From positions 1 to 21,218 of the IMG/VR virus record IMGVR_UViG_2547132270_000005: 21,218 nt of DNA; one strand, 5' to 3'. The notes below the pieces were generated by a model, which had not been told where the DNA came from, ran no database searches, and was given only the letters and a program-made list of their open reading frames with translations. Below are positions 1-5,039 of this stretch, one piece after another; within the stretch, counting starts at the first letter, position 1; each line of letters begins with the position of its first letter. Made by a program: the position numbers and the translations under genes. The stretch is from a virus (taxonomy: Duplodnaviria > Heunggongvirae > Uroviricota > Caudoviricetes).

Positions 1-40
1 CAAGCTGATGATGCGGGTTCGATTCCCGCTACCCGCTCCA
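1..40 (+). tRNA. tRNA-Gly (UCC-type, glyT-like), 3' portion only; the 5' part lies outside the window
   Basis: Bases 1-40 read CAAGCTGATGATGCGGGTTCGATTCCCGCTACCCGCTCCA: a T-arm (GGTTCGATTCC), a 3' acceptor strand and terminal CCA. From memory this is near-identical to the 3' half of E. coli glyT (one acceptor-stem difference). The anticodon itself is outside the window. Confidence 0.7.
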
Positions 41-403
41 GCATTTGAAACAAGCCTTATTGTATTGCGGCACTGGCGTATTTTTTATTACGTGGGAGCA
101 GGTTGTTTTGAAAAAGCATTCTGTTCTCTGGCTATGATTTGAGGCCGGGTGTAGCCTCAGTGCTGATTTTTTTACGGTAGCAGAATGGTGCATTATCGAT
201 GGAGATTTTGTATTTCCTGGCAGGGTCGGTGATGCATCATTCTGGTGTTGTAAATCGCACCATAGAGGCGCTCCTCAGTGCGAGGGTGGTTTAAAGAGTC
301 GGTTTAGCGGGAAACCACAGTATCCATACAGCACGGAATACTTCGGGAGGCACCCGACGCCTCGGTTTAATAACAATTAAAAAATTCATCCCTTGCATTG
401 ACC

Positions 404-430
404 AACCGCCATATCTGGCGGTTTTTTTTA
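404..430 (+). terminator. Rho-independent terminator-like hairpin (CCGCCA-tatc-TGGCGG) followed by a T8 run
   Basis: Seen directly: 6-bp GC-rich stem at 406-411/416-421, then TTTTTTTT at 422-429. Oriented for + strand transcription; the opposite strand lacks a downstream U-tract. Confidence 0.5.
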
Positions 431-806
431 TTCCTTTCTCAGGACAAAAAAAGACACGAGCATCCAGGAATACTCGTGGGACAACGTCCTTTAGATAGCA
501 ATTTGCGAGAGGGTGAAAAAATGGCGCGGCTGTCGGATTAAAGCCGCGGGACAAAGTCCATGAAGAATAATAAGTATCAGCCTCCTACAGGAGACGAGTT
601 GATATTACTAAGCTTTAAAAATGGTTTAAATCCTCAGATTAACCTTAATTTCAGGTAAGTCTTATTTCATTTCTTCGCGCCACGCCCGGCGCACATCAAA
701 AACCACAGAGCCTTTCAGGGGTGAGCTTACGGGATGGTCAGTGTGACTTTCTCTGTGGGCTGGTCACCCCCGGGCGGAGGCTCACCCACTAAAAGGAAAA
801 GTCACG

Positions 807-1232
807 ATGTTTGGTATTTTCAAAAAGAAAACCCGCAAGGCCATTACCGAAGTGAAGAAGATGGAGAACCGCGATGCGGTGGAGGCGACCGTCTGGGGTG
901 CGTATTCCATCGCATACGCTGACGACACCTGTGACGCGAAAGAAATCGCAGTACTGGAGAAAACCATTGCAGCACTTCCTGCCTTTGCGCCGTTCTCCGG
1001 CGAGATTGCACAAATGAGTGCAAATATCCGCGCCCGTTATGAAGCGTCGCCGCGCTCTGCCAATGCTGAAGCCCTTCGTCAGCTGGCTGATGTTGCCGGT
1101 ACTGATGATGCAGTTAATGTACTGTGCCTGTGTCTGGATATCGCTGACCAGGATGGCATTGGTCCGGATGAAGAAGCACAGCTTAAGAAAATTGCTCAGG
1201 CGCTTCAGCTACCGCTGGAGCAGTACCTGTGA
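807..1232 (+). CDS. TerB-like (tellurite-resistance TerB / DjlA N-terminal fold) small protein, 141 aa
   Basis: ORF with RBS AAGGAAAAG 6-8 nt upstream of the ATG. The C-terminal segment LDIADQDGIGPDEEAQLKKIAQALQLPLEQY and the upstream helix pattern resemble the TerB acidic ADG/DEE signature. Family assignment is by eye only. Confidence 0.6.
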   Translation: MFGIFKKKTRKAITEVKKMENRDAVEATVWGAYSIAYADDTCDAKEIAVLEKTIAALPAFAPFSGEIAQMSANIRARYEASPRSANAEALRQLADVAGTDDAVNVLCLCLDIADQDGIGPDEEAQLKKIAQALQLPLEQYL

Positions 1233-1381
1233 AAAGTGCGCGCCTTGTACTGGCTGCCATCCTGCTGTTTCTGGTAGTGGCGGTGGATTTCACCGGACGG
1301 CTGATGTCGGTGCTGGCAGATGGTGTGCTGGTGGCGATGGCGCTGGTCGTGCTCCGGCCTTTACTGCGCAAATCTGAATAA
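1229..1381 (+). CDS. Small hydrophobic membrane peptide, 50 aa (MKSARLVLAAILLFLVVAVDFTGRLMSVLADGVLVAMALVVLRPLLRKSE)
   Basis: GTG start overlaps the TerB-like stop (GTGA). It is below the ORF track length cutoff. Two hydrophobic stretches, and a strong terminator follows. No RBS is visible other than coupling. Confidence 0.4.
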   Translation: MKSARLVLAAILLFLVVAVDFTGRLMSVLADGVLVAMALVVLRPLLRKSE

Positions 1382-1432
1382 CACCACACAAAAGGCATCT
1401 GCGGGTGCCTTTGACGGGGTGTTGTTTTTTTA

Positions 1433-1456
1433 CGGGCCGCTGGTGGCCCTTTTTTA
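1433..1456 (+). terminator. Rho-independent terminator (GGGCC-gctggt-GGCCC plus TTTTTT)
   Basis: Seen directly; a second hairpin (AAAGGCA...TGCCTTT, 1391-1413) with a T-run lies just upstream. It separates the TerB-like cassette from the lysis genes. Confidence 0.65.
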
Positions 1457-1474
1457 TTTACAGGAGAAAAAAGT

Positions 1475-1867
1475 ATGTCTGAACCCTTATCCGGTTCCGG
1501 TACGGCTGCGGCGCTCGGCGGGGCGACGGTGTACGGGCTGTTTACCGGAACGGATTTCGGGATTGTGTTTGGTGCGTTCGCCGGGGCGTTGTTTGTGGCA
1601 ACGATGCCGCAGCAGCTTTCAGCCTGGCGTGTGGCGGCGCATTTTCTGGTGTCGTTCATTGTTGGCGTGCTGGGAGCGCGTGTGCTGTCAGCCTGGATAG
1701 CGGCAAAAACAGGTTATGACGGTACATCGGCAGATGCGCTGTGCGCGGTGCTTGTCGCGGTAGTGTCGGTAAAGATTCTGTCGTTCATCCACCAGCAGGA
1801 TATCGCATCACTGGTGTCCGGTCTGTTCTCCCGCCTGCGGGGCGGAGGAGGTGGCAATGTTAAGTAA
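1475..1867 (+). CDS. Putative holin-like membrane protein (130 aa, multiple predicted transmembrane segments)
   Basis: Strong RBS (AGGAG) before the ATG at 1475. Gly/Ala-rich hydrophobic segments; sits immediately upstream of the endolysin gene. Holin call is by position and hydrophobicity, not motif. Confidence 0.55.
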   Translation: MSEPLSGSGTAAALGGATVYGLFTGTDFGIVFGAFAGALFVATMPQQLSAWRVAAHFLVSFIVGVLGARVLSAWIAAKTGYDGTSADALCAVLVAVVSVKILSFIHQQDIASLVSGLFSRLRGGGGGNVK

Positions 1868-2135
1868 CCTTCCCGACTTGCTGAATGTGGCGTTATGCAC
1901 GGTTATTGTGCTGACGCTCTTTTTTTATCGTCGCCGTGATTCCAGACATAAACCGCTGATGTCATGGCTGGCCTGGCTGCTGATGCTGCTTTATGCCTTT
2001 GCACCACTCAGCTATCTGTGCGGTCGCCCGTTAGCGGCGAACTGGCTGGCGGTGGGGCTTAATCTGCTGTTCTGCGTGTTGGTGATTCGCGCACGTGGGA
2101 ACGTTTCAAAAATCTTTGTATTACGAAGGCGCTGA
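1857..2135 (+). CDS. Second lysis-cassette membrane protein (about 92 aa; holin or antiholin-like)
   Basis: RBS GGAGGAGG precedes the ATG at 1857 (track ORF begins at 1851). Three hydrophobic stretches. The stop lies 2 nt before the endolysin start. Confidence 0.5.
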   Translation: MLSNLPDLLNVALCTVIVLTLFFYRRRDSRHKPLMSWLAWLLMLLYAFAPLSYLCGRPLAANWLAVGLNLLFCVLVIRARGNVSKIFVLRRR

Positions 2136-2136
2136 T

Positions 2137-2682
2137 ATGAAGTCGAAAGATGAAATTTTTGACGAAGTTCTGGGAAAAGAGGGCGGTTACGTCAATCACC
2201 CGGATGATAAAGGCGGACCGACAAAATGGGGTATTACGGAAAAAGTCGCCCGCGCTCACGGATATCAGGGCGATATGCGTGACCTGACACGCGAACAGGC
2301 GCTGGAAATCCTTGAGGCGGATTACTGGTTCGGACCACGCTTTGATCAGGTGGCCGCATTATCCTCTGATATTGCTGCAGAGTTGTGTGATACCGGTGTG
2401 AATATGGGGCCGTCCGTAGCATCGAAAATGCTCCAACGCTGGCTGAACGTTTTCAACCTGCAAGGCAAATTGTTCCCGGATATGGACGCAGACGGGCGTA
2501 TCGGCCCCCGCACGATTAATGCACTACGGACTTATCTGCAAAAACGCGGCAAAGACGGCGAACTGGTGATGCTGAAGGCGCTGAATTGCACGCAGGGCGA
2601 CCGCTATCTGGAGCTGGCAGAAAAACGCGAGGCCAACGAGTCGTTTGTCTACGGCTGGATGAAAGAGCGCGTAGCAGTTTAA
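2137..2682 (+). CDS. Endolysin, glycoside hydrolase family 108-like N-terminal domain with a C-terminal peptidoglycan-binding domain
   Basis: N-terminus DEIFDEVLGKEGGYVNHPDDKGGPTKWGIT matches the conserved GH108 N-terminal pattern (EGG...P.D.GG.T..GIT). The C-terminal region resembles a PG-binding domain. Start chosen at ATG 2137 (RBS GAAGG); the track ORF opens at 2095. Confidence 0.8.
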   Translation: MKSKDEIFDEVLGKEGGYVNHPDDKGGPTKWGITEKVARAHGYQGDMRDLTREQALEILEADYWFGPRFDQVAALSSDIAAELCDTGVNMGPSVASKMLQRWLNVFNLQGKLFPDMDADGRIGPRTINALRTYLQKRGKDGELVMLKALNCTQGDRYLELAEKREANESFVYGWMKERVAV

Positions 2683-2778
2683 AAACTGACGCTGAAGTGC
2701 TGAACACCCTCAACTCACGCAGGCTCTTTTCTGGGGTTACTATGAGCGAAAGTAAGGGGTACAGCATCAGATAGCAAA

Positions 2779-2810
2779 AACCCCGGCTGCTGGAACAGTC
2801 CGGGGTTTTT
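2779..2810 (+). terminator. Rho-independent terminator downstream of the endolysin gene (A-run, CCCCGG...CCGGGG hairpin, T-run)
   Basis: Seen directly: AAAAA-CCCCGGCTGCTGGAACAGTCCGGGG-TTTTT. The flanking A and T tracts could allow function on either strand. Confidence 0.65.
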
Positions 2811-2901
2811 AGTTTTCACGTCAAAGAGGAAATTGTGAGTAGTGAGTACGGAGAAAATCCTCGTGGGAAAGTATAAAAGATTCTTTTTGAGGTTGTCCAT
2901 T

Positions 2902-3015
2902 ATGAAAGGTATTGAAGTGGAAACTCCCGCGAGCCTTGATTTGACAAGGGCTGCGGCCTTTGCAATTCGCCTTGTGGCGGTCGCTGTTCTGATTTGGGCT
3001 GTGCGTTGGTGGTGA
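2902..3015 (+). CDS. Small membrane peptide, 37 aa (MKGIEVETPASLDLTRAAAFAIRLVAVAVLIWAVRWW)
   Basis: ATG start with a C-terminal hydrophobic helix; the stop sits 1 nt before the next ORF. Below the ORF track cutoff. Coding status uncertain. Confidence 0.35.
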   Translation: MKGIEVETPASLDLTRAAAFAIRLVAVAVLIWAVRWW

Positions 3016-3043
3016 TATGAGCCGAAAACACTGGACACACAGA

Positions 3044-3199
3044 ATGCCGCGAGCGGCGGCAAAATGGGCACTGGTAGCGATACTGGTGCCTTTTTTATTG
3101 GTGGGATGCGTTAGCCTGGATAAGGCGCGCCAGCTTTTCGATACCGCGTCTCAGGTCTGTCAGCTTATTGATGGCGTTCGACGGTGTACGCAGAACTGA
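3044..3199 (+). CDS. Small lipoprotein (signal peptide with lipobox LVGC; about 29-aa mature peptide); possible o-spanin-like, entericidin-like or exclusion lipoprotein
   Basis: From Met at 3044: positively charged n-region (MPRAAAK), hydrophobic core (WALVAILVPFLL), lipobox L-V-G-C. The track ORF begins at 3017. Confidence 0.5.
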   Translation: MPRAAAKWALVAILVPFLLVGCVSLDKARQLFDTASQVCQLIDGVRRCTQN

Positions 3200-3207
3200 T
3201 CACCAGC

Positions 3208-3244
3208 ATTATCGCAGCCCTTCAGTGTGAGGGGCTGCGATAAT
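3208..3244. repeat. Perfect 13-bp inverted repeat (ATTATCGCAGCCC ... GGGCTGCGATAAT) with an 11-nt loop
   Basis: Seen directly, immediately after the lipoprotein stop codon. No U-tract follows, so it is not a canonical intrinsic terminator. Confidence 0.6.
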
Positions 3245-3325
3245 GCCAAAGCTCGTTATCAGCACCCGCCACGCACCCAGCGCACTGGCCGATAGCGGGC
3301 TTTTTTATTCATAAAGCGAGTCTGT

Positions 3326-4114
3326 ATGAGCGAGAAATTGAAGATCGTCTATCGCCCTTTACAAGAACTGTCTCCGTATGCACACAACGCCAGAACACAC
3401 AGCCCTGAGCAGGTGGCACAACTGGTAGAAAGCATTAAGCAATTCGGCTGGACTAATCCGGTGCTGATTGATGAAAAGGGCGAAATTATTGCGGGTCACG
3501 GTCGCGTTATGGCGGCTGAAGTGCTCAAAATGGATTCCATTCCGGTCATCGTTCTGTCTGGTCTGACGGATGATCAGAAAAAGGCGTACCGCCTGGCAGA
3601 TAATCGCCTGCCGATGAATGCTGGCTGGGATGAAGAGCTGTTACGGATGGAGCTGTCGGACCTAATCAATGCTGATTTTGATGTCTCCCTGACAGGCTTC
3701 AGCCCGACAGAAATTGATGAACTGTTGACGGATGTTTTGCCCGGTACAGGAAATGAGGAGGAGCCGTATACGACGAAAATTGATACGCCTGTTTATGAGC
3801 CGTCGGGCGGTAAACCGGATATCAGTGAACTGTACGACGATACGAAAACTCAGAAGTTGATCAGCCGGATACGTTCGGCGTCCCTTGATCCTGATATTGA
3901 GAAATTCCTCCTGTGTGCGGCAGAACGTCACACGGTGTTTAATTTCAGCAGAATTGCGGACTATTACGCTCACGCCCCTGCTGAAATTCAGTGCCTTTTC
4001 GAGGAGTCGGCGCTGGTGATCATTGATTATCAGCAGGCTATTGAAAATGGATTTGTCCGGATGACGCAGCGCATGGTGGAGATCATGCATGGCGGGGAGG
4101 AGGAATATGCGTGA
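3326..4114 (+). CDS. ParB-like (ParB/Srx fold) nuclease-domain protein, 262 aa
   Basis: The N-terminal roughly 100 aa (YRPLQELSPYAHNARTHSPEQVAQLVESIKQFGWTNPVLIDEKGEIIAGHGRVMAA...) fits the ParB N-terminal domain pattern, including the GxGR-type motif. The C-terminal half is unassigned. Confidence 0.7.
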   Translation: MSEKLKIVYRPLQELSPYAHNARTHSPEQVAQLVESIKQFGWTNPVLIDEKGEIIAGHGRVMAAEVLKMDSIPVIVLSGLTDDQKKAYRLADNRLPMNAGWDEELLRMELSDLINADFDVSLTGFSPTEIDELLTDVLPGTGNEEEPYTTKIDTPVYEPSGGKPDISELYDDTKTQKLISRIRSASLDPDIEKFLLCAAERHTVFNFSRIADYYAHAPAEIQCLFEESALVIIDYQQAIENGFVRMTQRMVEIMHGGEEEYA

Positions 4115-5039
4115 TGATTTTTGCGCCTTTATTCTGACTCACGGGCGACCGGACAAAGTTCTGACTTACCGGACGTTGCGTCGTGCTGGCTATACCGGGA
4201 AAATTTTTATCGTTGTTGATGATGAAGATAAGACACGGCATCAGTACATGGCTGAATTTGGTGAACAGGTGCTGGTGTTTTCCAAAGCCGATATCGCCAG
4301 TCGTTTTGACGAAGCCGATAATTTCGGTGACCGGCGCTCAATTTTTTACGCCCGTAATGCCTGTTTCGACCTGGCAAAACTGGTCGGGTGTAAATACTTC
4401 ATTCAGCTCGATGATGATTATCACGAGTTCCAGTTTCGGGTGGATCGCAACTATGACCAGGCCTATTTTCCGATAAGGAAACTGGATGCGATCCTTTCTG
4501 AAATGCTGGCGTATTACGAATCAATACCCGCGCTTTCCATCGCTATGTCGCAGGGCGGGGATTTTCTTGGTGACAATGGCGGCCATGCTTCGTGGGTGAA
4601 ACGCAAGGCAATGAACAGCTTTATCTGTTCGGTTGATCGACCGTTCTCATTCATGGGGCGCATTAACGAGGATGTGAATACGTACACGAATCTCGGTCGC
4701 CGTGGTGAATTGTTTATGACGATCGGTGCTGTCCAGTTAGGGCAGAAACAGACGCAGAAAAACAGCGGCGGAATGACCGAGCTGTATCTGGATTCCGGAA
4801 CCTATGTTAAAAGTTTTTACTCCGTCATGCATGCGCCGTCGTGCGTAAAAATCTCACTGATGGGCGCCAGCCATAAACGCATTCACCATCAGGTCACCTG
4901 GAACAACGCTGCAGTAAAAATCCTTCACGAAAAATACAGGAAGAAGACACCCTGCATATCAATGGGGGTGACAAATGATTCCGTATTCGAAAGTCGAGTC
5001 TCTGGCAGCGTGCCGGATGACTGCACAACAAATCGCTGA
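4107..5039 (+). CDS. Hypothetical enzyme, possibly glycosyltransferase-A-like (acidic motifs IFIVVDDED and IQLDDDYHEF)
   Basis: RBS GGAGGAGG before the ATG at 4107 (track ORF opens at 4089); the ParB-like stop falls inside its first codons. Motif spacing resembles the GT-A/GT2 DxD arrangement. No PP-loop or methyltransferase motifs were seen. Function is inference only. Confidence 0.55.
   Translation: MRDDFCAFILTHGRPDKVLTYRTLRRAGYTGKIFIVVDDEDKTRHQYMAEFGEQVLVFSKADIASRFDEADNFGDRRSIFYARNACFDLAKLVGCKYFIQLDDDYHEFQFRVDRNYDQAYFPIRKLDAILSEMLAYYESIPALSIAMSQGGDFLGDNGGHASWVKRKAMNSFICSVDRPFSFMGRINEDVNTYTNLGRRGELFMTIGAVQLGQKQTQKNSGGMTELYLDSGTYVKSFYSVMHAPSCVKISLMGASHKRIHHQVTWNNAAVKILHEKYRKKTPCISMGVTNDSVFESRVSGSVPDDCTTNR

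Follow-up and report, generated by a model that had tools for sequence, protein, structure and literature searches.

A probable copy of the phage P1 tciA-tciB gene pair in the tRNA-to-holin cargo slot of a tailed phage

The question raised by this locus is what a small TerB-like protein and a hydrophobic peptide are doing between a tRNA gene and the lysis genes of a phage. The initial annotation of the window (the whole stretch of 21,218 nucleotides that was analysed, IMG/VR record IMGVR_UViG_2547132270_000005) had described a 141-aa open reading frame followed by a GTG-started, stop-overlapping frame of 50 aa, and both were present. The features of the locus, with the gene names of the pair taken from phage P1, are as follows.

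1–40, + strand: 3' end of a tRNA-Gly gene, a phage gene cut by the window edge, matching the tRNA-Gly of phage JLK-2012 and of E. coli prophages
689–697, + strand: left junction repeat GCGCACATC, at the end of the backbone; cassette-less relatives align to ~700
698–806, + strand: conserved leader of ~108 nt, in which CCUUU at 711–715 is predicted to pair with the Shine-Dalgarno sequence AAAGG at 792–796
807–1232, + strand: tciA, ATG start, 141 aa, single-domain TerB-family protein
1229–1381, + strand: tciB, GTG start, 50 aa, hydrophobic DUF3927 peptide, overlapping the tciA stop
1366–1374, + strand: right junction repeat GCGCAAATC; cassette-less relatives resume alignment at ~1366
1376–1455, + strand: tandem intrinsic terminators, a hairpin at 1376–1427 followed by a T-run and a hairpin at 1434–1449 followed by a T-run at 1450–1455
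1475–1867, + strand: holin, Phage_holin_8 (Pfam/PHROGs)
1851–2135, + strand: holin, Phage_holin_3_7 (Pfam/PHROGs)
2137–2682, + strand: GH108 endolysin with a PG_binding_3 domain (Pfam/PHROGs)

The lysis genes that had been placed downstream of the pair were thus found as two holins and a GH108 endolysin spanning 1475–2682, and the remainder of the window was a run of open reading frames on one strand, as is usual for phage late regions. At 3326–5039, between the lysis genes and the terminase genes, a ParB/Srx N-terminal-domain protein (262 aa) is followed by an overlapping TET-associated glycosyltransferase (TAGT, Pfam E = 6e-36). The scanned portion showed no TET/JBP gene, and the ParB/TAGT pair may be a DNA-modification module.

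The product of tciA matched the Pfam family TerB (PF05099) with 29.0 bits against a gathering threshold of 24.4 (E = 1.4e-6) and PHROG 632 'tellurite resistance' at 5e-64; a scan of NCBIfam gave no match. A profile built from 90 TciA sequences was matched, along its full length, to the solved structure of the TerB protein of K. pneumoniae (2JXU) with an E value of 1.6e-12, positions 13–137 aligning with 19–144, and the fold was all-helical and of the TerB type. TciA is therefore a member of the TerB family by sequence profile and by fold, as the initial annotation had proposed. Proteins of the TerB family contain two acidic A-D-G...E motifs, which form a predicted ligand or metal site. Among the TciA sequences the conserved residues of these motifs are D39, G40 and E46 in the first and D116, G117 and E122 in the second. 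The window protein contains both motifs, as D39-D40...E46 and D116-G117...E122, the aspartate at position 40 of the first motif standing where most of the family has glycine.

The second gene begins within the end of the first, the GTG of tciB at 1229–1231 being superimposed on the TGA of tciA at 1230–1232 to give the sequence GTGA, and a GGAG motif sits 9 nt 5' of the GTG. A 4-nt overlap of this kind is typical of translationally coupled genes. The 50-aa peptide matched Pfam DUF3927 (PF13064) with 53.5 bits (cut-off 25) and PHROG 1470 'TciB-like'; these were its sole matches, and none was obtained to the holin families of Pfam or PHROGs. Its hydrophobic character, which had been noticed earlier, was confirmed by hydropathy analysis, which gave a strongly hydrophobic peptide with segments at residues 4–19 and 25–42 around an invariant D20-F-T-G23. 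Both ends carry basic residues, and D31 and P44 are conserved. AlphaFold2 gave one continuous helix covering residues 2–48 with a pLDDT of 92.6 and no two-pass hairpin. For the topology of TciB, hydropathy and the structure model thus point in different directions. In a few assemblies (P0172, P0244 and P0306) the two genes are read through into TciA-TciB fusions of 170–197 aa that match both Pfam TerB and DUF3927. These are probably the result of single-nucleotide insertions or deletions where the stop and start codons overlap, either real or sequencing errors, and provide a weak hint only.

When the locus was compared with phage P1, the DNA at 807–1225 was 80% identical to P1 tciA, and the proteins, both of 141 aa, were 85% identical over 141/141 residues. 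The tciB product was 49% identical to P1 TciB. On the basis of this identity and of the shared architecture, positions 698–1374 of the window are very probably a copy of the phage accessory cassette tciA-tciB that was first named in P1, made up of the structured leader, tciA for a cytoplasmic helical protein and the translationally coupled tciB. The names were given in the annotation of the P1 genome by homology only (Lobocka et al. 2004; GenBank AF234172), and in that record the tci operon lies between tRNA genes, 3' of the C1-repressed Pban promoters and 5' of ban. The initial annotation had considered the pair an undescribed module. This was wrong, because the pair is named in the P1 annotation and annotated by PHROGs and RefSeq: PHROGs holds entries for both genes (PHROG 632 for tciA and PHROG 1470 for tciB), and in E. 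coli prophages RefSeq labels them 'tellurite resistance TerB family protein' and 'DUF3927 family protein'. In P1-like phage-plasmids tciABC is among eight variable regions and has been lost in about half of the tested members of subgroup 1 (PMC9603915), and a CRISPRi screen of P1 found the tci genes to be non-essential (PMC10695390). A homologue in the N4-like phage Pollock was remarked on and left unexplained (PMC4319500), and for the standalone TerB genes of Erwinia jumbo phages a function in competing with superinfecting phages has been suggested (PMC7824862). No experimental test of tciA or tciB function, and no phenotype tied to TciA or TciB, was found in the literature that was read. The third P1 gene was looked for in two ways: no + strand open reading frame of at least 30 aa starts between tciB and the terminators, and a search with P1 TciC among the fetched loci matched in two P1-type loci only. 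The pair itself is already known and annotated, and as a finding it is ordinary, being a set of known accessory genes in a known cargo slot.

The limits of the cassette were given by prophages of the same backbone that do not contain it. In E. coli A41 and 602354 the sequences corresponding to window positions 1–700 and 1366–2200 are contiguous, with a 12-nt overlap, and the inserted segment is therefore ~698–1374, so that the final two codons and the stop codon of tciB are backbone sequence. The cassette junctions coincide exactly with an imperfect direct repeat of 9 nt, GCGCACATC and GCGCAAATC, which may be the footprint of a microhomology-mediated gain or loss. The upstream limit of the tRNA-to-holin slot is the tRNA-Gly remnant, ~760 nt 5' of tciA. 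The tRNA that had been reported upstream of the pair was thus borne out by matches to annotated relatives, as the last ~40 nt of the gene at the window edge rather than as a complete neighbouring gene, and ARAGORN called no tRNA in the window because the gene is truncated at base 1. The ~650 nt of backbone at 47–697, between the tRNA-Gly and the cassette, are apparently non-coding and are conserved in the relatives. This region holds terminator-like hairpins at 139–160 and 404–423, with a T-run, and an Rfam scan of 1–1500 gave sub-threshold matches to the STnc100/STnc560 sRNAs at 237–501 (E = 0.3–0.8).

The cassette had also been described as self-contained and closed by its own strong terminator. 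A terminator scan and folding did reveal a strong double terminator 3' of tciB (-37.5 kcal/mol, z = -4.04 against shuffles), but the same sequence is present in the cassette-less relatives A41 and 602354 and in phage phiP27. Both terminators are thus part of the backbone, being kept in relatives without the cassette. A scan of the + strand of 1–3400 for sigma-70 consensus sites found no promoter, a result with which a weak or different promoter in the leader would be compatible. Since no promoter was found and the terminators are part of the backbone, the pair is not self-contained, and tciAB is most likely transcribed as part of the Q-antiterminated late message.

The same slot was compared across related prophages, in which the gene order is DUF1367, DUF1364, DUF1133 (Q-like), tRNA-Arg/Thr/Gly, the slot, holin, holin, endolysin, ParB-like gene and terminase. 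E. coli A30 has the cassette in the slot and A41 and 602354 lack it on the same backbone. The cassette was also found 5' of a holin-lysozyme-Rz set of the 933W type, after a methylase and Ile2/Arg tRNAs, and in phage JLK-2012, where it lies between Q, tRNAs and a DUF1737 (nanS-like) gene. This Q-tRNA-DUF1737 arrangement is the layout of Stx2 phages. In phiP27 the slot is occupied by stxA2e and stxB2e, followed by a relic of tciB that runs into the same terminators and holins. The relic is frameshifted and consists of the last ~100 nt of tciB; it lies at ~3990–4090 of the phiP27 locus (L006) and aligns to window positions 1287–1381. The relic suggests that, at the phiP27 slot, tciA and the 5' portion of tciB have given way to stx2e. 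The proposal that the pair occupies an Stx-type cargo position is thus upheld both by the slots that are empty and by the one that holds stx2e. With regard to the properties of a moron, the presence or absence of the genes among otherwise collinear phages was observed and a promoter and terminator of their own were not. The pair is optional phage cargo, as had been supposed, in a slot where the relative phiP27 has Stx2e, and is not a promoter-gene-terminator unit.

The leader at 698–806 is conserved across differing phage backbones and in front of two TciA subtypes with only 43% protein identity. When 27 distinct variants were folded together with RNAalifold, 97.6% of the alignment cells were paired and 5 pairs were changed on both sides, and neither value was reached by any of 500 shuffles (0/500). 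The fold of the single leader sequence was not significant (z = -1.35), and the Rfam scan of 1–1500 gave no match on the leader. Since the structure was derived from these same, related sequences, it is suggestive only. In this model CCUUU and AAAGG pair in the outer stem, and the leader may hide the ribosome-binding site of tciA and could act as a translational control element.

The distribution of the cassette was measured in genome, plasmid and phage collections. Cassette DNA was found in 388 of 5426 complete E. coli genomes (~7%), in full length in 165 of the 388, and the window was at most 96–98% identical to the database copies. PLSDB contains 679 plasmids that encode TciA; 665 of them are non-mobilizable, and the listed ones mostly measure 90–115 kb, the size of phage-plasmids. 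TciA-like genes were present in 91 phage records. One record, PP818812 ('Actinobacillus phage vB_Apl-pPE4'), shares 91.5% identity with the window across tciAB and the holins. It resembles a lambdoid phage of E. coli, and its recorded host may be questionable.

Co-occurrence of the two genes and conservation of the peptide were checked in these loci by HMM searches on the fetched sequences, which were used because tblastn with the 50-aa peptide was insensitive, low-complexity masking having taken out residues 1–19. A DUF3927 open reading frame followed the TciA frame in 93/93 fetched loci, and a search from the TciB side found TciA upstream in all 78 of the 78 evaluable loci. The overlap of the two genes was 4 nt in 87 of the 89 loci that were cleanly scored and 1 nt in the other 2; the sole difference in the remaining four of the 93 was an earlier in-frame start codon. 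As close relatives make up most of these loci, the counts carry little weight by themselves. Stronger evidence comes from more distant loci, since the pairing also persists in the second E. coli subtype (43% TciA identity), in N4-like virulent phages (Salmonella phage FSL SP-076, 66%, and E. coli phage Pollock, 30%), in Pantoea phage LIET2 (29%), in Pseudomonas phage ZY21 (39%) and in an Erwinia jumbo phage (44%). The partner frames of these loci encode hydrophobic products of 39–60 aa directly 3' of the TerB gene and matched the TciB HMM with E values from 7e-23 to 3e-7, and all except that of Erwinia reached the Pfam threshold for DUF3927. No DUF3927-like frame was found 3' of the TerB gene in Pseudomonas phage AF, and no DUF3927 gene was found in the N4-like Vibrio phage BUCT194. 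In the BUCT194 locus (L102, 1–1926) a terC gene is flanked directly by two terB genes, and the multi-pass TerC stands at the position that the small peptide has in other phages. TerB and DUF3927 pairs adjoin tRNA genes in about 4/10 of the inspected contexts from the phage collection (P1, Erwinia phage pEa_SNUABM_6, Pseudomonas phage ZY21 and JLK-2012), as well as in the window, which may simply reflect shared regions of accessory genes.

The occurrence of the pair in virulent N4-like phages and in distant and jumbo phages points to a role in the infected cell, one that is neither specific to lysis nor confined to lysogens. TerB is described as interacting with the membrane protein TerC in PMC11003894 and as attaching to the membrane in the Millman preprint. 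We tentatively suggest, as a possibility drawn from analogy, that the pair is a membrane-tethered TerB module. TciB would insert in the inner membrane and would partner or tether TciA at its cytoplasmic face, and the two would make up a minimal membrane module of the Ter type, a counterpart of the TerB-TerC complex that tellurite-resistance operons encode. Such a module might act in the infected cell by keeping the membrane intact or energised, or by excluding superinfecting phages or pore-forming colicins until programmed lysis, and would be dispensable for plaque formation. From gene position, expression seems to be early and C1-controlled in P1, late and Q-dependent in the window, and early or middle in the N4-like phages. 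These differences in timing, judged by gene position only, fit a general role in the infected cell without pointing to a specific mechanism. A more speculative and rather improbable extension would make the pair a two-component membrane module common to temperate phages, phage-plasmids, N4-like phages and jumbo phages, in which the lambdoid leader that hides the ribosome-binding site may sense an ion, a metabolite or membrane stress.

Several other readings of the locus were weighed against this one. The pair could be a defence or abortive-infection module of the prophage, expressed in the lysogen against other phages or colicins as a form of lysogenic conversion, like the Phi (phage inhibition) and PacB (colicin resistance) phenotypes of ter operons. 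It sits in a moron-type slot, the defence systems Shango and Bunzi contain TerB domains (Millman preprint) and phages are inhibited by ter operons (PMC4319500); Iyer et al. proposed that the Ter genes of phages act against superinfecting phages (PMC7824862). Set against this, neither TciA nor TciB matched any family of the PADLOC-DB defence models at E values up to 1, and no effector domain was found. The pair is also conserved in strictly virulent N4-like and jumbo phages, which form no lysogens. A lysogen-expressed role is weakened by this occurrence, by the lack of a PADLOC match, by the absence of a detected promoter (and of a terminator of its own) and by the position of the pair in a C1-repressed operon in P1, and is considered doubtful.

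The pair could instead time lysis, as an antiholin-like or holin-modulating device dedicated to the two downstream holins. The same holin pair lies directly 3' of tciAB in 70 of the 93 loci, TciB is a small membrane peptide and transcription with the late operon is probable. However, in P1 the pair lies away from the lysis genes, between tRNA genes and ban, in N4-like phages it is beside dUTPase and ATPase genes, and it also occurs in the jumbo Erwinia phage and 5' of the unrelated 933W-type holin. Relatives with the same type of holin pair (~92–97% DNA identity over the region) do without the cassette, and TciB resembles none of the holin families. Because the pair occurs away from lysis genes and is absent from relatives with the same holins, a role in lysis timing is very unlikely.

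A further reading takes TciA as an anti-defence decoy, a mimic of TerB directed against host systems that use it (the Ter operon, Shango and Bunzi). The spread of the pair among virulent and temperate phages and the TerB domains of host defence systems would agree with this, but TciA has no specific similarity to the TerB models of defence systems, and a speculative decoy of this kind leaves the obligatory membrane-peptide partner unexplained, so that we give it only a slim chance. It is scarcely tenable that the pair is a genuine determinant of tellurite resistance, as its name in the databases implies and as membership of the TerB family might suggest, given that the window has no terC, terD, terE or terZ, that the smallest resistance construct named in PMC11003894 is terBCDEF and not terB alone, and that the tci name was given 'by homology'.

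What TerB does biochemically has been an open question since the 1990s, and two genes make a far simpler object of study than the seven of the ter operon. If the membrane-tethered module does control the state of the membrane during infection, through superinfection exclusion or by countering TerB-based defences, it would be the smallest tractable model for the role of TerB. The comparisons show that the association of a TerB protein with a 50-aa DUF3927 peptide is maintained in phages of very different kinds, and that the pair and stx2e exchange at one and the same locus. Presence or absence of the cassette also marks recombination at the slot where Stx is inserted.

The closest known system is the tciA-tciB-tciC operon of P1, which resembles the window in the overlap of the DUF3927 gene with the end of tciA, in the closeness of tRNA genes and in being non-essential, variably present cargo. 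It differs in having tciC, where the window has the backbone terminators after tciB, and in its setting, which is the C1-controlled ban operon in P1 and a Q-dependent lambdoid late operon beside holins in the window. The leader 5' of tciA in the window is also unrelated to the sequence upstream of the P1 gene. The toxin morons of lambdoid phages, such as stx2e of phiP27, share the same slot in the late operon between the tRNA and holin genes, but their cargo is unrelated and the window cassette encodes no toxin. TciA is of the same family, size and fold as the TerB of terZABCDEF (IncHI2 R478, K. pneumoniae; PDB 2JXU), but shares little identity with TerB proper, and only a profile detects the relationship. 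The gene 3' of the TerB gene encodes the integral membrane protein TerC, a multi-pass, transporter-like partner, in the ter operon and a hydrophobic peptide of 50 aa in the window. The other neighbours also differ, those in the window being tRNA, holin and endolysin genes in place of terC, terD, terE and terZ. The Shango and Bunzi systems share with TciA a TerB domain, for which the Millman preprint gives a proposed role in membrane surveillance. They differ from the pair in that their PADLOC models were not matched and that no helicase, ATPase or other partner gene accompanies tciAB, which is encoded by phages, virulent ones included.
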